Source: a virus
Virus record (IMG/VR): IMGVR_UViG_3300025000_000067
Location: 1-64,000 of that record
Length of the DNA stretch: 64,000 nt
Reading direction: 5' to 3' (one strand)
Below the pieces are notes generated by a model that was given only the letters and a program-made list of their open reading frames with translations, did no database searches and was not told where the DNA came from. The position numbers and the translations under genes are program-made. Of the stretch, positions 8,049-37,958 are shown in pieces (the first letter of the stretch is position 1; the number at the start of each line of letters is the position of its first letter).

Positions 8049-10031
8049 ATGATTTTAGACTTAGTCGATGCCAAGCATGCCTTTTTCAACGGGAATACGT
8101 TCAGCTACAAAGCCCTTATTAAAGTAGTACCAGGGGCTGCATGGAATTCAAGTGACAGGCGCTGGGAGGTGCCCATAGAGAGTGTAATGGATGCTAAGCG
8201 TATTCTCCCATCCCTGCAGCTTTCTGAGGATATACAGCGCCTTGTAAAGGCTCTTGACGTTAGAAATAAGAAAGCTATTGAGCTTAAGTCAGCTGATGAG
8301 TCAAAAGCAGTTGCCACGGTTAAAGGTCTTAAAGGAACTCTACGGCCCTATCAGGCAGTTGGCAAAGCCTTCTTGGATGTTCTTCAGCAGGGGGAGGGTG
8401 CTATTCTCGGTTATGACATGGGTCTTGGGAAGTCACTGACAGGATTAGCAACGTTCTTAGACTGGAAGAATAGAGGGATTGTTGATTATTGTTTAGTAAT
8501 CTGCCCAGCGCCTCTGAAGTACTCGACATGGGAGAAAGAAGTTCAGAAGTGGACTGACCTTGAGGTAGTAATTGTCGATGGGGATAAGCCAGAAGTGGTG
8601 GAATGGGACGATGGCACAAAGGAGAAGTTAAAAGGACGGAGTTTACGAGAGGTCCAGTATCTTCAGTACCAGTACGGGGCAGCTATCATTGTTATGAACT
8701 ATGAGCTTTTTCTCCATGATAGTGAAGTTGACCGGTGGGATAAAGTTCGTGATCTAAACCAAGATGAGATAGACATGTACTTTAGATTAGCATCTGAAAA
8801 TAATGATGCAAATGGGCGAAAAGCTGACAGTGCTAAAGGGTTAGCTGTCGCAAGTAAAGCACTTGTTAAAATGCTGGTGTCTTCTGCAGAAGCAAAGGAA
8901 CATAAGATTTATGGTAAGAAGACCCCATGCCTAGCAAAGAGGCGCGTGCTTCATAACATCATACCGAGAATTAATGATCGCTGGTGTGTGATCCTTGATG
9001 AAGCTCACAGGTGTAAAAATAACAAGAGCTCAGCTGTTAAAAGAATCTTCAAAGCCCTTCCCAATGCAGGTAGAAAGATCCCAATGAGTGGAACACCCCT
9101 AGAGAACAATATCCAAGAGCTCTGGTCACTTGTAGACTTGTGTAGGCCAGGACTTTTAGGTACTCACTTTAAATTTATTGATCGTTACTGTGAGAAGGAC
9201 TTCTTCGGAACCATTGTAGGCCCTAAAGTGGGTATGATGCAGGAATTAAAGGACCGCATAGCCCCTATAATGCTTCGGAAGACAAAGGAAGAGGCTCTAC
9301 CAGACCTGCCAGAACTTACAGTCCAAGACTACTGGGTGACTATGACTCCTGAACAAACTAAGCTCTATGCTATGATCAAAGAGGGCATACTTCAGAACCT
9401 AGAAACTCAAGAGTTTTCGTACTTAGAGACTTTAGCCCAACTCACTAGGCTTCAGCAACTCCTTGATAGCCCAAGGCTCCTGAAGGAGGTCCTAGGAGAT
9501 GATACCCTGCCTATTGAAAGTGGTAAGCTGAATGAACTAGCTCATTTGATTGAAGACATAGGTCCTAAAAAATTTGTGCTCTTCAGTCAGTACAGGGAGA
9601 TGACTGATATCCTGTATAATTGGCTTATTGACTCAAAGATCCTTCAGAAGGACCAGATAGGGTACATTCATGGTGGTATGCAGGCCAGAAAAACAGCCCA
9701 AATTCAGGATGGCTTTCAAGAAGGGGATATCCAATGTGTACTCATGACGACAGCTGGTAACTATGGTCTTCAGTTGGATGCTGGAAGTTACGTCATATGT
9801 TACGATGAATTATGGAATCCTCAGAAGATGGCCCAGATATACTCGCGAGTTCACCGGAGCGGGGTTAAGAACGCAGTAATAGCCATTAATATGGTAACCC
9901 GGGGAACTTATGAGGAGAACAAGCTAAAGATCCTTGAGGGTAAGCGTGAGCTGTTCAGTGCCATGATCGACAATGATGACACAGCCTTTGCTAGTATTCT
10001 TAGTAAGGATGACTTTATAAATATGATTTAG
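8049..10031 (+). CDS. SNF2-family helicase
   Basis: LRPYQ, DMGLGKS, DEAH, SGTPLENNIQELWSL, SGKL, FSQY, GNYGLQL, WNP..Q..SRVHRSG. Confidence 0.95.
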   Translation: MILDLVDAKHAFFNGNTFSYKALIKVVPGAAWNSSDRRWEVPIESVMDAKRILPSLQLSEDIQRLVKALDVRNKKAIELKSADESKAVATVKGLKGTLRPYQAVGKAFLDVLQQGEGAILGYDMGLGKSLTGLATFLDWKNRGIVDYCLVICPAPLKYSTWEKEVQKWTDLEVVIVDGDKPEVVEWDDGTKEKLKGRSLREVQYLQYQYGAAIIVMNYELFLHDSEVDRWDKVRDLNQDEIDMYFRLASENNDANGRKADSAKGLAVASKALVKMLVSSAEAKEHKIYGKKTPCLAKRRVLHNIIPRINDRWCVILDEAHRCKNNKSSAVKRIFKALPNAGRKIPMSGTPLENNIQELWSLVDLCRPGLLGTHFKFIDRYCEKDFFGTIVGPKVGMMQELKDRIAPIMLRKTKEEALPDLPELTVQDYWVTMTPEQTKLYAMIKEGILQNLETQEFSYLETLAQLTRLQQLLDSPRLLKEVLGDDTLPIESGKLNELAHLIEDIGPKKFVLFSQYREMTDILYNWLIDSKILQKDQIGYIHGGMQARKTAQIQDGFQEGDIQCVLMTTAGNYGLQLDAGSYVICYDELWNPQKMAQIYSRVHRSGVKNAVIAINMVTRGTYEENKLKILEGKRELFSAMIDNDDTAFASILSKDDFINMI

Positions 10032-12476: not shown

Positions 12477-12552
12477 TGGCGCGTAACTCAGTGGTTAGAG
12501 TGCCGAGCTTATACCTCGGAAGTCGTTGGTTCAAACCCAACTGCGCCAACCA
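12477..12552 (+). tRNA. tRNA-Ile(TAT)
   Basis: complete 76-nt cloverleaf; anticodon arm CCGAG-CT-TAT-AC-CTCGG; encoded CCA. Confidence 0.92.
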
Positions 12553-24544: not shown

Positions 24545-24681
24545 GATGCTCACCTCTGATATAACGATTAACCCTACATCGAGTTATTAAACTAACCTGA
24601 CTTAATTACAGTGTATGCAGGTACAAGACTAGTATGCCACCGGGTAGCTTAGTATATACACAAAAATATGTTATAGCTAAC

Positions 24682-24710
24682 ATACTAAGCTATTCGACAT
24701 GGTTCGTCAA
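24682..24710 (-). promoter_or_regulatory. sigma-A promoter overlapped by tandem Spo0A boxes
   Basis: on minus: TTGACG-N17-TAGTAT; TGACGAA-cca-TGTCGAA. Confidence 0.7.
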
Positions 24711-24750
24711 TGCTTAAAGTCCCTAAAAGAGAGGTTGGTGATAAAAATTT

Positions 24751-31053: not shown

Positions 31054-31097
31054 AGAAGAGCCTGTGGTGACCTCGGATGGGGGCCACAGGCTCTTCT
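31054..31097. repeat. hairpin, direct-repeat copy 1
   Basis: AGAAGAGCCTGTGGTGACCTCGGATGGGGGCCACAGGCTCTTCT. Confidence 0.85.
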
Positions 31098-31117: not shown

Positions 31118-31708
31118 TTGTTTGAGAAGACACGAAGTCTTAATAGCATTGTAAGTTTTAATTTGAACGTGCACCAATTCTATATACCTAAGCTATATAC
31201 AGAGTATCGGAGTTTGGTTAATAAGCTTGGCTTGTGCACTCTAAGAACTGATCATGCATCTCTACTTGAAGACTTGCCATTTTATATAGTCGATGCCCAT
31301 AAAGACAGCAGTGAAAAATTAGATGCTATATGGGCTAATGCACAGGATAGGGGTTACAGGTTTATCATAAGTGACGGTATTAAGTATGATGCTATTCAAG
31401 AGTATAATATGGTTGTTAAATTTCAGGAAGACGGTCATTTTTTATTTGAAGCTTCAGGCTTAAAAGTCCCACTTAGGCATATGTACAGATATCCTACTTC
31501 ACTGCTATCATGTACTGGCACCTTATCAGAGGGGATTCACCTTTGGTACATGTTTAATGTACAATATGGGCTAAATAGGCTAGTAATTAAAAATGATTTG
31601 TTAACTCTATACAACTACGGATTATTTGATAAGTGGTTAGAGGTAACAAAGTACCCAATACCAGTAGGCATAAGAAACGAAAACATTGTATTCTGGCAAA
31701 TAAAGTAA
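31118..31708 (+). CDS. hypothetical protein flanked by directly repeated hairpins
   Basis: 196-aa AT-rich ORF; C-terminal EVTKYPIPVGIRNENIVFW. Confidence 0.65.
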   Translation: MFEKTRSLNSIVSFNLNVHQFYIPKLYTEYRSLVNKLGLCTLRTDHASLLEDLPFYIVDAHKDSSEKLDAIWANAQDRGYRFIISDGIKYDAIQEYNMVVKFQEDGHFLFEASGLKVPLRHMYRYPTSLLSCTGTLSEGIHLWYMFNVQYGLNRLVIKNDLLTLYNYGLFDKWLEVTKYPIPVGIRNENIVFWQIK

Positions 31709-31710
31709 TT

Positions 31711-31762
31711 AACAGAAAGAGCCCGTGGTTACCTCAGATGAGGGCCACAGGCTCTTTCTGTT
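31711..31762. terminator. hairpin copy 2; probable bidirectional terminator between convergent genes
   Basis: AACAGAAAGAGCCCGTGGTTACCTCAGATGAGGGCCACAGGCTCTTTCTGTT. Confidence 0.75.
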
Positions 31763-32642
31763 TACCATACCATATAGGCCCCAAGGGATCTTCTGAAGCC
31801 AATTCATTTGATGTAAAGAGCCACTGCAGGTCAGTATTGTCTATTCCATAGATAGCGTTCCTCAGCCTCAGAGCGCGGTCTAGGTTTGTCGTGACTGTTA
31901 GGATAAGGGGGAAGGTTCCATAGATCGATTCAAAGCTTTTAGAGGCATAGTAGGCTGTATAGCGCTGGTGTTTCCTTTGGAAGACCGGTAGGCTCATGGT
32001 TCCATTGTCTAATTCTAGGAAAAAGTGGATACCTTCATCTTCTGAAAACCAATACTGGCCATAAGCATCCGGATTACATACCATCTTCTTCCCCCAGAAG
32101 GTGAAACTATGTCGGGTATGGTTTTCTGTTCTGTACCCGGTAACTTCATGCTTATGTTTTCGAGCATTCCGGAGAAGTGAAATGTAGAAGTTATTGATGT
32201 CTACCATATGCTTAAGGTACGGAAGTCTTGTTTCGTTCATTTCATAGGACCATGATAGTTCTTCTACTTCTTGGTTAAGAAGTCCGGCTACAATCTTGGC
32301 ACCCAGTTTATCAAGGATAATATGGCCTTGGCTTGTTCCTTCATTCCCAATGTCTACAAAGAATCGGTCAACGAGTTGAGCATCAAAAAGTTTTCGGATC
32401 CTTCGTCTTGCAATAAGCTCTGATTGAGAGTTTTCAAGTCCTTTAGAGTTGTATCTGTAGTGCATTTCAGCTATTTGTCTGGTGGTTAAGCAGCGTTGAT
32501 AGTAGATAGATAACAGGACTTCTCTATCCCTTGGCGTTAACATAGGGTTCTGGTAAACTTCTCGTATTGACCGCTCAGTGTCCCCCTGTTTTCTGACGAA
32601 TTTATTAATCCTTCGTGAGGTAATTTGTCTAGTTTCTAGCAT
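31734..32642 (-). CDS. replication-relaxation family protein (Replic_Relax, relaxase-like)
   Basis: LTPRDREVL..LTTRQIA winged helix; H...IN; PDAY; FLELDNGTM; K...Y..Y. Confidence 0.9.
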   Translation of the reverse strand: MLETRQITSRRINKFVRKQGDTERSIREVYQNPMLTPRDREVLLSIYYQRCLTTRQIAEMHYRYNSKGLENSQSELIARRRIRKLFDAQLVDRFFVDIGNEGTSQGHIILDKLGAKIVAGLLNQEVEELSWSYEMNETRLPYLKHMVDINNFYISLLRNARKHKHEVTGYRTENHTRHSFTFWGKKMVCNPDAYGQYWFSEDEGIHFFLELDNGTMSLPVFQRKHQRYTAYYASKSFESIYGTFPLILTVTTNLDRALRLRNAIYGIDNTDLQWLFTSNELASEDPLGPIWYGKQKEPVALI

Positions 32643-32653
32643 ACCCTATCCTC

Positions 32654-35131
32654 CTACTTAACTCTCTGGATCTTACCTGTGGCCTTCCCAGTCTTTATAG
32701 AAGCACTCTGGTCTTCGGTAATCTGATTCTTTTGGATGGTACTATATCGGGCTTCTATGTCATCTTTTATTTCTGAGATATGCTTATAATTCCTAGTTTT
32801 ATAAGCATCTTTCCATTTCTTAACTTCAGCTAGCCCAACACTAGGAAAGTAGTCATCCATGTTAAGACAATCAAAAGTGAAAGGACTTGGGTGGATCTTT
32901 TTAAACCGTCCGTAGCCTGTATACTGAACCATAGATGTTAGGTCCTCTTCTGTAACTTCCGGCAGCATACGTTTGATTTTAGGTGCTGAAGATGTCCCTA
33001 TGAGTAGGCTCACTTGGGTGAAGGTGTTGTCTTCGATCATGCCCATAAGCTTAGCTGGGATCTGTTCAACGCTTTGATGGGCTAGGACTAAACCTAGGCC
33101 ATAGCTTCTGGCCATTTCTAAGAAACGCTGAATATCAGATTCTTGGTCGAGGAACATCTCAAATTCGTCTAAGATGGCCACATGGGGTATCCGTTTATCG
33201 ACTTCTGTATCCCCTCTACTAAATACCGCTTTACTGATAAAGGCAGTGAATAGGGTTCCGAAGAAGGAGATAATTTCGTTTTCGTTTTTGTCTAGCGCAA
33301 AGTTGACTATAATAATTGCTTTTTCGTCTAACATCTTTCTCCATTTATACAAGTTTGTCTTTTGACACATGCTATACCGCGGTAATTCATTTTGGGTAAT
33401 GACCTCAAGCTTATTAAGGATAGCTTTAGACTCTGCTTGGCGTGCTCTAATCTTCATGCCTTTGTAGCTTTGCCAGTAGCTTAGGACATCCGGAAATTCT
33501 GTGTCATCTTCCATCTTAGCTAGGGTCCAATCTAAATAATCTTCATCTGTGAACATGCGGTAGACTTCTAGTATAGATCCTTCAGGATTTGTGCTTATGA
33601 CTGCAATGAGGGCTCTTCTGAGGATGCTTTGACTGTGCTCCTTAATAGAACCCTCACTATTGAGTTTTAGGAAGACAGAGACGATCATAGTGGCCAGATT
33701 GTAGGTGCTCATACCAGGCTGTATCAGGAAATTAAGAGGTATAAACTGCGCTATGTCCTGAAGGTCAATGTAATGTACCCGGTGCCATTCACTTTTTGGA
33801 AGATGGGCCATTAGTTCATCGGCCACATCTCCTTTAACGTCAAAGAAGGTCAGACCACAGTGTCTTATAATTTGAAGTCCTAAGAACGATAGCCACCAGC
33901 TTTTTCCGCTACCTGTTCCACCAATGCAGTAGACATGTTGCATAAGCATTTTAATATCTTTAAAAGCTAGGTATTTTAGACGACCTCTAAAGTTTGATCT
34001 TCCGAAGACAATAGCTTGGTCTTTCCACGCTTCTTCAATGGTATTGTACTGATAGACTCCATCAGGTACAGGCATTTTTTTAGCCTGCAGTCGTATGATT
34101 CCTGGGATGTTCTTTGCTGGGAAATGGAGGATCGTTGCAAGCTCTGCTGGGGTAACATAGTTTTCAATAGGGTATGTATGAATTCTTCTTGCTGCATAGT
34201 CTTTCAAGAATTGACTTACCCCGTGTTGGTTAAATAATCTTAAATGTCTTTTATAGTATTTTTCTCGGTAGTCAGAGAAGGGTCTAAAACGATTTTTATC
34301 AGTGGCTGGTGCAAAGGAGCTAATAACTGTGGATAAGCGTGCTCGGGCTTTACCGAAGGCATTGTGGCTGCATACGAGACGTATTTCTAAGTCAAAATAA
34401 ATACCGGCTTCTAGTTTCTTTTGAATTGAGTTTAAACTGGTGTTATGGTCTTTTGATCCAGCATTGCCTGTGAGGGTATAGTGTATAGCTCCTAGTAATG
34501 CTTTGGGGGTTTTCATTAGTCCAGTCCATTTAGCATATGGGTAGTGCATGCGACTAGGTCGTTTACCTGTTTTTTTATATATTTCGTAGTGGCTATTGGC
34601 TATGACTAAGGCTCTATAGGGTACAGGTCTTAGGGTAAATTGAACCCATACTTCTTCTTCATCATCTAGGTTTTGCATGGAGGCGCATAAACTAGCTATC
34701 ATATCTGCTCCGATGCGTTCACCGTCTGACTGTAGAAGATTAAAGAGATAATGGCTGTCAAGTTCTAGCGTGGCACAGGCTACGTTTAAGGCATAGAGTC
34801 TTCCGAAGCGTCCGTAATCTTTTTTAGGTGTAATAATTTCTGCTGATTTGTGGATAGAGTTTATATTGCTCTGGATAAAATCTTTTTCTAGATTTTTTGA
34901 AAGCCAAGTGTATAGGTTAATACCTTTATTGGTTCCTTGGAACTCAAAGCTTAACCAGTCATAGGGTTTTTTAGGGTTATATATCGTATAGAGAGAATCA
35001 AATAGACTATTGTACTGAGATGGCTTAAATTCAGAATCTTTTTCAATGAGTATTTGGTATAGGTTCCCATTCTTAGATCCACTGCTTAAGCGTTTTCGGT
35101 GAATAGGGTACATTAGGCTTTTTATGATCAT
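32654..35131 (-). CDS. VirD4/TraD-like type IV coupling ATPase
   Basis: Walker A GGTGSGKS, FDVKGD, Walker B AILDEF, ARSYGLGLVLAHQSVEQI. Confidence 0.9.
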   Translation of the reverse strand: MIIKSLMYPIHRKRLSSGSKNGNLYQILIEKDSEFKPSQYNSLFDSLYTIYNPKKPYDWLSFEFQGTNKGINLYTWLSKNLEKDFIQSNINSIHKSAEIITPKKDYGRFGRLYALNVACATLELDSHYLFNLLQSDGERIGADMIASLCASMQNLDDEEEVWVQFTLRPVPYRALVIANSHYEIYKKTGKRPSRMHYPYAKWTGLMKTPKALLGAIHYTLTGNAGSKDHNTSLNSIQKKLEAGIYFDLEIRLVCSHNAFGKARARLSTVISSFAPATDKNRFRPFSDYREKYYKRHLRLFNQHGVSQFLKDYAARRIHTYPIENYVTPAELATILHFPAKNIPGIIRLQAKKMPVPDGVYQYNTIEEAWKDQAIVFGRSNFRGRLKYLAFKDIKMLMQHVYCIGGTGSGKSWWLSFLGLQIIRHCGLTFFDVKGDVADELMAHLPKSEWHRVHYIDLQDIAQFIPLNFLIQPGMSTYNLATMIVSVFLKLNSEGSIKEHSQSILRRALIAVISTNPEGSILEVYRMFTDEDYLDWTLAKMEDDTEFPDVLSYWQSYKGMKIRARQAESKAILNKLEVITQNELPRYSMCQKTNLYKWRKMLDEKAIIIVNFALDKNENEIISFFGTLFTAFISKAVFSRGDTEVDKRIPHVAILDEFEMFLDQESDIQRFLEMARSYGLGLVLAHQSVEQIPAKLMGMIEDNTFTQVSLLIGTSSAPKIKRMLPEVTEEDLTSMVQYTGYGRFKKIHPSPFTFDCLNMDDYFPSVGLAEVKKWKDAYKTRNYKHISEIKDDIEARYSTIQKNQITEDQSASIKTGKATGKIQRVK

Positions 35132-35367
35132 GCTGTCATACCACCTTTGACTGCTTCTTTAATAATATTCCATAGGAGCTGGCCAAGGTCTGTTATTGCT
35201 TGACCGGAGTGTAAGTAGAGTACTAACGCATCACGTTTTACTTGTAGGGCATAGATAACTAAATTACACATTTTAACTATAAAGATTAAGATTACACCAG
35301 TAAAAACACTACCGAAAGTTATCTTTAATATCCAAGATTCAATCTCGTTATGTGAAGGTATATGCAT
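35128..35367 (-). CDS. small membrane protein
   Basis: long hydrophobic segment; ATGA-coupled to the ATPase gene. Confidence 0.7.
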   Translation of the reverse strand: MHIPSHNEIESWILKITFGSVFTGVILIFIVKMCNLVIYALQVKRDALVLYLHSGQAITDLGQLLWNIIKEAVKGGMTA

Positions 35368-35376
35368 AATATCCTC

Positions 35377-35823
35377 CTAAACGCTAAGTAACGTTTTACA
35401 AGCAGCATAGATATCATTAAATAACCCAATAACTTCATAAAGTATAATTCCACCACCGACAAAGGCAACAAGAGGAATAACATCACCGCGTCCTGTAAAC
35501 TTTAAAAATGAACTTACAACTAAAGTAAAAAAGCCAACAACAAGCATATGGAGTAATATAGCTCCTTTCCCTCCCCAAAAACTTGTAGGTACGACTGTTC
35601 CTGATGTAACAGCTAGCGCTGGGTGCATAAAGTTAAAGAGAGCTGAACCAGGTAGTAGAATATTAAGAGTTGTAAAAGCTATACTAGGTGCTAAAGCAAC
35701 AGCTAGATTAACTATTTTTTGGTGTTTTTTGTACCAACGTATAAAACTTCGATTAATAAATACTAATTCAGAATCTAAATACTTTAATTCAGACAACTTT
35801 CCAATTACTTGTACTTTTTTCAT
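35377..35823 (-). CDS. membrane protein with C-terminal SpoIIIAC/AD-like domain
   Basis: ungapped register match of VG..L...GR.D....V...G...IL..V....ND.Y...K to the SpoIIIAC pattern (recalled, not searched); leader ends in ALA. Confidence 0.6.
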   Translation of the reverse strand: MKKVQVIGKLSELKYLDSELVFINRSFIRWYKKHQKIVNLAVALAPSIAFTTLNILLPGSALFNFMHPALAVTSGTVVPTSFWGGKGAILLHMLVVGFFTLVVSSFLKFTGRGDVIPLVAFVGGGIILYEVIGLFNDIYAACKTLLSV

Positions 35824-35945
35824 AAGACACTTCCTTTTTAGATATACTGTGGTGTATTTTTATGTTAAACATTAGATTTACATGCAAGTACCAATAAATT
35901 AAGAAATAGTATCTCAGGTATATCTTTATTGAATAATACAAAAAG

Positions 35946-35985
35946 AAATGCTAAGAAGCTTGCTGTCAGCGGTTTCTTAGCATTT
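35946..35985. terminator. hairpin upstream of the transfer operon (terminator or oriT candidate)
   Basis: AAATGCTAAGAAGC..GTTTCTTAGCATTT. Confidence 0.55.
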
Positions 35986-36080
35986 TTATATAGACTAGTT
36001 TATTTCTTTTTTCTATTTTTAATATTTAAATTTACAATTCTCAAAGTGAGGAGGATTTCTTTTTCTCTCTTTTCTTCTTC

Positions 36081-36425
36081 CTACCATATCTTTAGTTGAA
36101 ATCGTTGTTTCCTTGGAAACCAAGAAATCAACTTATCACTCAAAATATGAACAACAGCTCCTAAAGCTATAAACTCAAAAACTACTACACCAAACAATAA
36201 GAAAGGAAAAGCTAACAATAAAATACCAAATAAGCTATGACAATGCCCTCTGTGTTTCATCCATCGACTAAAAATATTATATCGACCCAATGTTGATGTT
36301 CGGAGATCAATATCAGGTAATAGACTTCCAAAAAGAATACAAAAAAACAATAAAGGACTTTGAACTATAAACAACCCAACTACTGATCCTATAATAAGAT
36401 GACCTAAAAAGTTGAATACAATCAC
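36081..36425 (-). CDS. YdjM-like membrane metal-dependent hydrolase
   Basis: GH, GSLLPDID, HRGHCHS, HILSD. Confidence 0.88.
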   Translation of the reverse strand: MIVFNFLGHLIIGSVVGLFIVQSPLLFFCILFGSLLPDIDLRTSTLGRYNIFSRWMKHRGHCHSLFGILLLAFPFLLFGVVVFEFIALGAVVHILSDKLISWFPRKQRFQLKIW

Positions 36426-36450
36426 CTTCTCTCTTTTAAGTTGATAAATA

Positions 36451-36480
36451 TAGTATGTTCAATTTCAAGTTCATCTATCC
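36451..36480 (-). promoter_or_regulatory. sigma-G-type (forespore) promoter
   Basis: on minus: GGATA-N18-CATACTA. Confidence 0.6.
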
Positions 36481-36489
36481 TACCAAATT

Positions 36490-36744
36490 TTAGAATTTAT
36501 TTTTATACAGAATATTAGCTTTTAAAGATCCCTCAGGCTGCTTTTTAACTGTAGGCTCTTCAGGTATTACCCAAGGTTCAGGAGTCTTAGGGACTTCTGG
36601 AATAGCCCTCATCACTGGCGACCCCTTCTCTATCTGCATAGCTTTACGGTAAACCTCTTTAAGTCGTCCGGTCTTATTCTTATACCGCTCCAAATCTCTT
36701 ATAATATCTGCATCATCTGTAGGATGTAACCTAAACCCAGCCAT
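36490..36744 (-). CDS. ParR-like RHH adaptor
   Basis: FRL..DDADII..LE...N.T..LKE.YR; immediately downstream of parM. Confidence 0.7.
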   Translation of the reverse strand: MAGFRLHPTDDADIIRDLERYKNKTGRLKEVYRKAMQIEKGSPVMRAIPEVPKTPEPWVIPEEPTVKKQPEGSLKANILYKNKF

Positions 36745-36752
36745 AGCTTAAA

Positions 36753-37730
36753 TCACCCCTCTGAGAGCTTAAGAAGCCCGTATTTCCGGTAACCATTAGC
36801 ATTTGCAAGCTCTGCATTATCCATAGTAAGGCAAGGTACACCTGTAAACTCAGTAATGTAGTCTGTATAAACATGAGCCCCACCACCACAAAGGATCACC
36901 GCTGAAAACCTTCTGAAGTCTGGTATATGAAGACTAAGCTCATCTTGTAGTGTAGGTAGCCTGACTTCAATAGCCTTTCTAACAAGTTCATGAACCTCTA
37001 CCTTTTTACCACCTAGCTTTAAAAGACCTGTACGTAAGACTCGATCCACTTCCATAGGCTGAGGTAAAAAACTAAATGAGTGTGAGATAAGCTTTCTAAG
37101 TTCTTTTTGTACTTCATGAACTCCTTCCCAGATAGTAAAGGAGTCCTGTGAGAAGGCACCTTCCTCCATTATGCATCCATCCGTTGACTTACCACCTATG
37201 TCAAGGATTAAGAGGTCTTCAGAAGCCAGCTCTGTGTTCCTCTCTTCCCCCTCAGCATCCAGTACAAAGTCAAAAAATGCCCCGGCAGACTGGGGAAGGA
37301 CTAAAGAATCATTGACTTTAACAAGGCGCTGCACAGCATTAAAGCCGAAGTTAAAACCCCCCTTTAACCGTTCAGCAAAAGCTAGCTTAGAAGCTTCACG
37401 CTTATACTCTTCAACCGGTAGGCCAGATACAAGTAAATCAATAATACTAACACCTGTAGATTCTTGGTAGAGTCCTAAAATTGTGAGTAACTTCGGTAGA
37501 TCCGATTCAGAGGACAACCGCTCAGACTTAAAATCAAAAGATCCTTTAGACCCTACGTTCCATGATCCCCCATGCTCCGTTGTAATAAGATATCCTTCTG
37601 AATCATTTAGATCTCCCATAATAACTTCTGAACGCCTTTTGCTAAGTGACGGGCAAGTATCATCCCAGTCTTTTCCTACCCCTTTAAGTTGGACAAAGCC
37701 AAGGTCAGCACCAACTACATTTTTCTTCAT
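36753..37730 (-). CDS. parM: ParM/StbA actin-like partitioning ATPase
   Basis: ADLGFVQLK, SGLP, PQSAGA, LDIGGKSTD, LCGGGA, ANANGY. Confidence 0.92.
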   Translation of the reverse strand: MKKNVVGADLGFVQLKGVGKDWDDTCPSLSKRRSEVIMGDLNDSEGYLITTEHGGSWNVGSKGSFDFKSERLSSESDLPKLLTILGLYQESTGVSIIDLLVSGLPVEEYKREASKLAFAERLKGGFNFGFNAVQRLVKVNDSLVLPQSAGAFFDFVLDAEGEERNTELASEDLLILDIGGKSTDGCIMEEGAFSQDSFTIWEGVHEVQKELRKLISHSFSFLPQPMEVDRVLRTGLLKLGGKKVEVHELVRKAIEVRLPTLQDELSLHIPDFRRFSAVILCGGGAHVYTDYITEFTGVPCLTMDNAELANANGYRKYGLLKLSEG

Positions 37731-37750
37731 TGTTTAACCAGCTCCTTATT

Positions 37751-37827
37751 TGTTGAACACTCCGTTAAACACTATTCAACAAAGCTTAGTTATATCCTGC
37801 TTAGAGTGTTAAACATTTGATAAAACA
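37751..37827 (-). promoter_or_regulatory. sigma-H-type promoter overlapped by parC-like repeats
   Basis: on minus: GCAGGATAT-N14-GAAT (37800-37774); TGTT(G/A)AACA-like repeats at 37751, 37763, 37773, 37807, 37819. Confidence 0.7.
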
Positions 37828-37958
37828 ACTATACTCCTACGCTATTATGTGTTAAGTATATAGGGACTATCTTATGGGAGGGGTTGTAGACGAGTAGAAG
37901 AAAAGGTTATAGGAACCGTGTCAAGACAATTAGAAAGTACAGAAAGGTTAGGTGTTTT

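Follow-up and report, generated by a model that had tools for sequence, protein, structure and literature searches.

We analyzed the first 64 kb (64,000 nucleotides, hereafter the window) of the IMG/VR virus record IMGVR_UViG_3300025000_000067, the genome of an uncultured phage that is 102,131 bp long and rated 100% complete, and focused on a block of genes in which a DNA segregation cassette is coupled to conjugation-derived DNA-processing genes. The block is approximately 6 kb long, and it is the sole multi-gene minus-strand block in the 102-kb genome. Open reading frame (ORF) listing verified seven co-directional genes on the minus strand at 31734–37730. In the order of transcription, they encode a ParM or actin-like segregation ATPase (36753–37730, 325 aa), a ParR-like adaptor (36490–36744, 84 aa), a YdjM-like membrane protein of a metal-dependent hydrolase family (36081–36425, 114 aa), a membrane protein assigned to the SpoIIIAC family (35377–35823, 148 aa), a single-pass membrane protein of 79 aa (35128–35367), an ATPase with a predicted VirB4 architecture (32654–35131, 825 aa), and a Replic_Relax or MOB_C-type relaxase (31734–32642, 302 aa). 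The stop codon of the 79-aa protein gene overlaps the start of the ATPase gene, and the ATPase and relaxase genes are adjacent, with a gap of 11 nt. An earlier note on this DNA, made from the sequence alone, had proposed this gene content and the coupling of segregation and DNA-processing genes; the ORF listing and family searches bear out both, and the coupling is conserved in related phages.

A “DNA translocation operon” was described in 2012 in the Bacillus phages 0305phi8-36 (orf200–207) and SPO1 (gp27.3–27.9), and its parts according to Pathria et al. are a MobC(CloDF13)-like relaxase, a VirD4-like translocase without transmembrane (TM) segments, membrane proteins, and an MreB-like protein (PMC3357382). 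In the same study, orf200 was tied to CloDF13 MobC by HHpred (4.4e-22) and orf201 was the TM-less translocase. The SPO1 locus lies on the strand opposite to its flanks and encodes gp27.9 (a partition protein), 27.8, three small hydrophobic proteins, gp27.4 (906 aa), and gp27.3. When blastp was run against a small database, ParM matched gp27.9 (E = 5e-12), the ATPase matched gp27.4 (E = 1e-9), and the relaxase matched gp27.3 (E = 2e-14), in the same order and with identities of 23–27%; ORF207–200 of 0305phi8-36 form the same gene string as the window block. From these sequence comparisons, we consider with high confidence that the phage carries its own version of the known operon in this block and that the cassette as such is not new. 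The copies have in common ParM, a small ParR-like protein, small membrane proteins, a TM-less ATPase of ∼800–900 aa, a MobC-like relaxase, and their position on the opposite strand. In contrast, an SpoIIIAC-family hairpin protein and a YdjM-like hydrolase are found in the window copy, whereas 0305phi8-36 has the VirB6-like orf203 instead, according to Pathria et al. (PMC3357382), and sporulation-type promoter matches are present in the window copy but not in the SPO1 locus. The new points from this analysis are the SpoIIIAC-family component, the sigma-H and forespore-type promoter matches, and the VirB4 motor architecture. Many phages that infect endospore-forming Bacillota carry this type of operon (SPO1 27.9–27.3, 0305phi8-36 orf207–200, and Tsamsa-type phages), and SPP1 has a reduced form. 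In SPP1, genes 31–32 include an 836-aa TM-less ATPase, a gp27.4 homologue, after small membrane proteins, as in the window, and gp32 is a non-essential, early-expressed protein that is TrwB/VirB4/FtsK-like by HHpred (Godinho et al., 2018, PMC6316719). In the SPP1-like phage 049ML003, no annotated ParM, ParR, or Replic_Relax gene adjoins the ATPase gene, and the small protein in the slot of the SpoIIIAC-like protein is weakly TrbC pilin-like.

The relaxase matched PF13814 with 86.8 bits (cut-off, 25.3; E = 2.6e-24) and phrog_9381, which is labeled “replication initiation by nicking” (E = 1.7e-26). In CONJscan, the counterpart of PF13814 is MOB_C (PMC5357655), and the fold of the family is PD-(D/E)XK (PMC3424549). 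The window protein combines the features of MOB_C relaxases, namely the PF13814 domain, an N-terminal helix-turn-helix (HTH), and acidic and lysine residues of the PD-(D/E)XK type, and residues H145, D192, E210, D212, K224, and Y228 do not vary among 10 phage homologues. A search of PDB sequences with the relaxase profile returned nothing significant.

The earlier note had described the neighboring ATPase as VirD4/TraD-like. PF02534 was matched just above its cut-off (23.1 vs. 20.1 bits), and phrog_5156 was matched with E = 2.5e-47; PF12696 reached 19 bits (cut-off, 22), the match to NF045973 (E = 4e-9) was far below the cut-off of that model, and the VirB4 model TIGR00929 gave E = 0.0068 with 14.7 bits against a cut-off of 643. 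A hydropathy scan found no N-terminal TM segment, the anchor expected of VirD4/TraG coupling proteins, and the N-terminal domain matches only VirB4. In an AlphaFold model of the full protein (predicted local distance difference test score, pLDDT, 82), the motor domain was close to VirB4 (4ag6; Z = 26.5, 335 residues aligned) and TrwB (Z = 26.0), with HerA and DotL equally near. Residues 1–350, modeled alone (pLDDT 85), form a soluble VirB4-like domain; in Foldseek, ranks 1–13 (E < 0.008) were all TrwK/VirB4, with a best E of 8.5e-6, and in a comparison with 48,161 chains, TrwK/VirB4 scored Z = 14.8 (252 residues aligned; root-mean-square deviation, 3.9), while the next entry scored Z = 7.3. 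According to these models, the ATPase has the VirB4 architecture and is not a typical membrane-anchored VirD4 protein. Because the structural scores of the motor tie between VirB4 and TrwB, the designation “VirB4-type” rests on the N-domain. The note had also argued from the absence of VirB4, and family searches of the whole 102-kb genome gave no match to VirB4 (PF03135) or AAA_10 (PF12846). That argument is unsound because the ATPase itself has the N-domain and motor of VirB4. No further genes of a type IV secretion system (T4SS) were found in the 102 kb.

A MOB_C relaxase beside an ATPase of the VirD4/VirB4 superfamily is the architecture of mobilizable elements (PMC5357655, PMC3357382), and the cassette could accordingly serve a virion-free spread of phage DNA between cells, in chains or biofilms as proposed by Pathria (PMC3357382), or mobilization through the channel of a co-resident conjugative element. 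The model for the latter would be CloDF13 or the streptococcal integrative and mobilizable elements (IMEs), which have a MOB_C relaxase and their own coupling ATPase. CloDF13 MobB/MobC, pAD1 TraX, and class 8 of the streptococcal IMEs (PMC5357655) share with the block a PF13814 relaxase and a VirD4-superfamily ATPase without a mating-pair apparatus, and sequence models favor VirD4/TraG for the motor domain. However, the ATPases of these elements are membrane-anchored coupling proteins encoded on plasmids or integrative elements, whereas the window ATPase has a VirB4 N-domain, lacks the coupling-protein TM anchor, and is encoded together with ParMR in a virion-encoding genome. A virulent-type genome of 102 kb with no integrase or plasmid replicon would either kill the recipient or amount to an ordinary infection, no true member of the ATPase family was found in the other 400 of 401 Bacillota genomes searched, and a restriction to phages of spore formers would be left unexplained. 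We consider spread from cell to cell to be quite unlikely as the function of the cassette.

The resemblance of the motor to HerA of defense systems (Z about 20–23), a match to mad8 in PADLOC (E = 1.8e-13), and the PD-(D/E)XK nuclease as its partner (PMC3424549) would fit a superinfection-exclusion or anti-phage/anti-plasmid device, in which a membrane-docked HerA/VirB4-like ATPase and the nuclease attack incoming DNA. This reading was ranked low because PADLOC gave only the mad8 motor match: one of eight MADS proteins was matched, and there was no other PADLOC match. The N-domain is VirB4-specific, and both the linkage to ParMR and the HTH-relaxase family point to the handling of the phage's own DNA, so a defense role appears very improbable.

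The segregation part of the block was compared with the known ParMRC systems. ParM consists of ALP_N and MreB-like_C domains and matched PF17989 (E = 3.2e-12), PF21522 (E = 1e-9), and phrog_691 (E = 3.4e-42). The 84-aa protein encoded directly after parM matched no family, and no ParR family model, in the family searches. It has the layout of ParR: a conserved N-terminal pattern (xRLxxxDxDIxxDL...KTxRLKE) with a ribbon-helix-helix look, as judged by eye, is followed by a linker that varies and by a tail that is conserved at the C terminus. A parC-like cluster of TGTTTAACA-type iterons flanks the parM promoter at 37731–37815, with four sites and six strand-specific matches in 85 bp, and analogous iterons surround the promoters of L002 and L015, two of the relatives that we compared (L002, L003, L004, L015, L016, and L017 are viral contigs; L005 and L006 are bacterial assembly contigs). 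The components of a ParMRC system, an actin-like ATPase, a small downstream adaptor, and upstream iterons, are thus all present, as the earlier note had proposed for the ParM and ParR-like pair, and the iteron layout resembles parC of plasmid R1. ParMRC of R1 and the Alp systems of Bacillus plasmids and phages have in common with the block the actin-like ATPase, the small adaptor, and the iterons flanking the operon promoter; in contrast, the adaptor here has no ParR model match, and the promoter matches the sigma-H consensus. An extra exact copy of the TGTTTAACA iteron lies at 35863–35871, ∼40 nt upstream of the SpoIIIAC-like gene, so ParR might regulate the second transcription unit too.

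The 148-aa membrane protein consists of a leader, a hydrophobic segment, and a C-terminal two-helix hairpin. When searched alone, it remained below the cut-offs (PF06686, E = 0.0086, 16.7 bits; TIGR02848, E = 0.0026), whereas its orthologue in L005 scored 24.6 bits, above the 24-bit Pfam cut-off for SpoIIIAC. We then used hhalign to compare an alignment of the six-member phage family with 26 host SpoIIIAC sequences, with a reversed control. The probabilities were 85–94% with P values of 1e-7 to 8e-7 (best, 94% and P = 1.3e-7), the reversed control gave nothing, and the comparison with proteobacterial TrbC/VirB2 gave P = 8e-4 and that with VirB3 gave nothing. The global alignment covers the entire SpoIIIAC, the local alignment covers its core (51 columns), and the common motif is LKxxG+xDxAxxVxxxG. 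A language-model atlas placed SpoIIIAC at rank 2 for this protein, which serves as a lead only. On the basis of these alignments, the 148-aa protein is a member of the SpoIIIAC family, in agreement with the earlier note; we found no paper that ties SpoIIIAC to phage proteins. The likeness to the mother-cell-to-forespore channel SpoIIIA–SpoIIQ, in which SpoIIIAC/AD takes part, is limited to sequence: the C-terminal hairpin aligns with the SpoIIIAC core, but the phage protein has an extra N-terminal leader of 80 aa and a hydrophobic segment, and no other SpoIIIA protein is encoded in the phage operon. The SpoIIIAC-like protein is limited to this subgroup of phages. The small proteins of SPO1, Izhevsk, and 0305phi8-36 match neither model, and tblastn of the 148-aa protein against the phage records gave no match.

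The 79-aa protein has one TM segment and is conserved in L002, L004, L005, and L015; hhalign detected no similarity to VirB3, VirB2, or SpoIIIAC. Given the VirB4 architecture of the ATPase, the local gene order resembles virB2–virB3–virB4, as in the core of R388 (TrwL/TrwM/TrwK): the gene for the leader-bearing hairpin protein comes first, followed by those for the small one-TM protein and the ATPase of ∼800 aa. The resemblance has its limits, in that SpoIIIAC is a much better match than VirB2 for the hairpin protein. The YdjM-like protein (PF04307, E = 1.5e-12) has three to four hydrophobic segments and is conserved in L002, L004, L015, L016, and L017.

The distribution of the block was examined at several levels. 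The seven-gene order is kept in L002, L003, and L015, and the YdjM-like, ATPase, and relaxase genes are kept in the distant L016 and L017, in which the ATPase identity is ∼35%. A megablast search of the block against phages and plasmids gave no match, and a single-protein scan of genome contigs returned nothing. A profile scan found only Ammoniphilus resinae, a remnant in Brevibacillus, and distant motor-only matches, and a metagenome scan and a relaxase-profile scan added few usable further relatives. The Ammoniphilus resinae DSM 24738 contig (L005; NZ_JAGGKT010000030.1, 32 kb) carries genes for the SpoIIIAC-like protein, the small membrane protein, the ATPase (62% identity), and the relaxase, followed by a ParA-type ATPase in the stead of ParM; the normal spoIIIAC/AD pair of this genome is on a separate contig. 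In Brevibacillus sp. H7 scaffold1 (L006, 197 kb), all that is left is ATPase residues 379–521 and relaxase residues 1–54, and this sequence looks like a decayed remnant of the cassette. In L004, a viral contig of 105 kb, a gene for an alpha/beta small acid-soluble spore protein (SASP; 8383–8580; PF00269, E = 3e-21) lies between the ParR-like and YdjM-like genes and is preceded by a sigma-A-type promoter (TTGATA-17-TATACT). No SASP gene is present in the 102-kb genome of the window.

Using tblastn with the relaxase against 50,697 phage records, 39 records were matched, all from Bacillus phages, including the virulent SPO1 (gp27.3), CP-51, the Tsamsa group, and phage G. Homologues of SPO1 gp27.4 were found by tblastn in 146 phage records: Bacillus, 133; Geobacillus, 5, plus two deep-sea phages, which we take to be Geobacillus phages; Lysinibacillus, 2; and Alicyclobacillus, Brevibacillus, Clostridium, and Microcystis, 1 each. 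Thus 145 of the 146 records are named for Bacillota genera, the exception being the Microcystis phage, and the host genera of these 145 records are all endospore formers. No Staphylococcus, Listeria, Streptococcus, Lactococcus, or Enterococcus phage was among the 146, and phages of these genera are numerous in the collection, some of them in the same family as SPO1. The idea in the earlier note that the module is confined to elements of endospore formers fits 145 of 146 ATPase records, although common ancestry and the limited sensitivity of tblastn restrict what this pattern can say. In a search of 401 Bacillota genomes, the full-length ATPase family was found only in Ammoniphilus, the search center, and the other 14 hits covered the motor domain only. 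The ATPase is therefore a phage gene rather than a common gene of plasmids or integrative and conjugative elements.

The gene content of the genome bears on the possibility that the block is a maintenance or replication module of a plasmid prophage, in which Replic_Relax would be a nicking initiator, ParMR would partition the episome, and the ATPase would resolve or segregate its copies. The PHROG label of the relaxase family, the interpretation of such genes as plasmid replication and segregation functions by authors of Bacillus phage papers (PMC9658697), and the related element in the Ammoniphilus resinae assembly, which has ParA for ParM and suggests stable carriage, all fit this view. Neither a tyrosine integrase nor a serine recombinase was matched in the window or in the whole 102-kb genome, which also fits and confirms the earlier note on this point. 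On the other hand, the main replication system lies outside the block, since the phage has a helicase, a primase-helicase, a DNA polymerase, a terminase, and a portal of its own, and the same operon is present in the strictly virulent phages SPO1, CP-51, and 0305phi8-36. No repressor or lysogeny switch was identified in the genome, and the membrane proteins and the VirB4 fold would be left unexplained. A maintenance module is thus an unlikely reading of the block. The “extrachromosomal phage” of the earlier note is likewise not established, given that a replisome of its own and the lack of an integrase are also what is seen in the virulent phage SPO1.

We also examined the promoters and terminators of the block. 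Upstream of parM are a sigma-A-like promoter (TTAACA-16-TATAGT; 37828–37855, minus strand; 10 of 12 in a consensus scan, a consensus match only) and, 43 nt upstream of the parM ATG, a sigma-H-type match (GCAGGATAT-N11-GTTGAAT; 37774–37800, minus strand). The full sigma-H consensus RNAGGAWWW-N11/12-RNNGAAT occurs once in the 102 kb on both strands, compared with 0.2 in shuffles. L015 has a version with one mismatch in the same place, and L002 lacks the −35 part. The YdjM-like gene is preceded, at a distance of 26 nt, by a sigma-G/F-type match (GGATA-N18-CATACTA; 36451–36480, minus strand). Its motif, G.ATA-N17/18-CATACTA, is found twice in the 102 kb, again compared with 0.2 in shuffles. Both promoter matches were listed in the earlier note, and both are borne out as rare in the genome. 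Immediately before the YdjM-like gene, the sigma-G-type motif recurs as GCATA-17-CATACTA in L015 and as GTATA-17-CATACTA in the distant L017, and this conservation argues for selection on the motif. The sigma-H and sigma-G motifs were not found in L002, L004, L016, or the SPO1 operon. No phage sigma factor was recognized, as there was no Sigma70_r2 match and the only r4 match was sub-threshold and inside the relaxase gene; therefore, host sigma factors would read the sigma-H- and sigma-G-type sites. An intrinsic terminator-like hairpin with a T-run, read from the sequence, follows the YdjM-like gene (35940–35981, minus strand), and an equivalent hairpin follows this gene in L015. The predicted reach of the sigma-G-type promoter is thus limited to the YdjM-like gene, given the terminator at the end of that gene. 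No sporulation-type promoter was recognized before the SpoIIIAC-like, 79-aa, ATPase, and relaxase genes: the sigma-G scan was negative, and there was no sigma-E match upstream of the SpoIIIAC-like gene. The sequence GCATG-N16-CATAAAA before the 148-aa protein gene was considered as a sigma-G promoter and rejected, since it fails the consensus and is not conserved.

At the other end of the block, a hairpin with an 18-bp stem at the convergent junction (31711–31762) is interpreted as a terminator that acts in both directions and closes the operon. Two near-identical hairpins of 38 nt (AGAGCCYGTGG-N16-CCACAGGCTCT) at 31057–31094 and 31718–31755, found nowhere else in the genome, flank a 196-aa ORF (31118–31708) that adjoins the relaxase gene. 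The twin hairpins were considered as an origin of transfer (oriT) and rejected; they are read as bidirectional terminators because equivalent hairpins, with an A-run, stem, and T-run, are found at the same place, the 3′ end of the relaxase gene, in L015, L016, and SPO1. No oriT was identified near the relaxase gene.

Another proposal, close to that of the earlier note, is that the cassette gets unintegrated phage DNA into the forespore or a virospore. ParMR, timed by sigma-H, would bring the phage genomes to the cell poles ahead of asymmetric septation; the relaxase, the ATPase, and the SpoIIIAC-like protein would pump, move, or anchor the DNA at the septum, engulfment, or forespore membranes; and the YdjM-like protein would act in the forespore under sigma-G. 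The unique sigma-H consensus upstream of parM with its one-mismatch copy in L015, the sigma-G-type promoter before the YdjM-like gene in the window, L015, and L017, and the predicted dependence on host sigma factors are in line with this proposal, as are the SpoIIIAC-family protein encoded in the operon, the SASP gene inside the cassette of L004, and the 145 of 146 gp27.4-homologue phages that are named for genera of endospore formers. Moreover, virospores are formed by SPO1, a carrier of the cassette, and a helping role in entrapment has been proposed for its ParM gene 27.9 (PMC12991052). However, the SpoIIIAC-like, ATPase, and relaxase genes lie behind a terminator and have no sporulation-type promoter, the sigma-H and sigma-G motifs are missing from several relatives and from the SPO1 operon itself, and the promoter of the L004 SASP gene is of the sigma-A type. 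The SpoIIIAC-like protein is confined to this subgroup, with a weakly pilin-like protein in the SPP1-like slot, and the host restriction may simply mirror how far tblastn reaches and a common gene pool. In addition, the entrapment of phi29 is achieved with host Spo0A and Spo0J alone. If true, a role in the forespore would explain both the near-restriction to phages of endospore formers and dispensability in lytic growth, and from this circumstantial evidence we regard it as a tentative possibility.

Taken together, the block is probably best explained as an accessory variant of the DNA translocation operon, made up of a ParMRC cassette and a T4SS-derived set of a relaxase and a VirB4-type motor. 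In such a system, the iterons around the promoter would be the binding sites of ParR, and filaments of ParM would drive unintegrated copies of the phage DNA apart toward the cell poles. Binding and nicking of the phage DNA would fall to the MOB_C-type relaxase. The soluble, hexameric VirB4-type ATPase, tethered to the membrane by the 79-aa and SpoIIIAC-family proteins, would power the passage of the DNA, or of the DNA-bound relaxase, across a membrane. The deletion of orf200–207 in 0305phi8-36 caused no growth defect (PMC3357382), and we infer that the cassette is dispensable for lytic growth. Several points weigh against this explanation. Dispensability is carried over from distant homologues (the 0305phi8-36 deletion and SPP1 gene 32), the sequence models PF02534 and NF045973 put the motor nearer to VirD4/TraG than to VirB4, and the 79-aa protein lacks similarity to VirB3. 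Furthermore, neither a wall hydrolase nor a channel protein resembling VirB6 or VirB8 was recognized in the window, and VirB10 was not recognized either, so that no complete translocon can be made out.

For the accessory translocation operon as a whole, we consider that its role is probably in a non-lytic phase, when the genome of the phage has to be kept, positioned, or moved without a virion. The setting of this phase may be the sporulating host, with capture in the forespore or virospore, although we hold this only tentatively; a plasmid-like carrier state is less probable, cell-to-cell spread or mobilization is less probable again, and the remaining probability falls to exclusion or other settings. 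The cassette is present in the model phages SPO1 and, in its reduced form, SPP1, its ATPase family occurs in 146 phage records, and the formation of virospores by virulent phages is an old question under renewed study. The SpoIIIAC-family component, the conserved promoter matches, and the VirB4 motor provide concrete handles that make the forespore hypothesis testable in tractable systems. Even without a role in the forespore, the cassette would be a minimal, phage-adapted relative of type IV secretion.

Two further features of the window lie outside the block. A tRNA gene at 12477–12549 is the only Rfam match in the window. The second sigma-G-type motif of the genome (GTATA-N18-CATACTA; 24659–24630, minus strand) lies just downstream of a sigma-A-like promoter (TTGACG-N17-TAGTAT; both within 24630–24715), the spacer of which contains a consensus Spo0A box (TGTCGAA) at 24699, and the ∼250 nt behind the motif appear to be non-coding and have no Rfam match. 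The Spo0A box TGTCGAA is depleted genome-wide, with two copies on both strands compared with 12.8 ± 3.7 in shuffles. Both sigma-G-type motifs of the genome precede minus-strand units.

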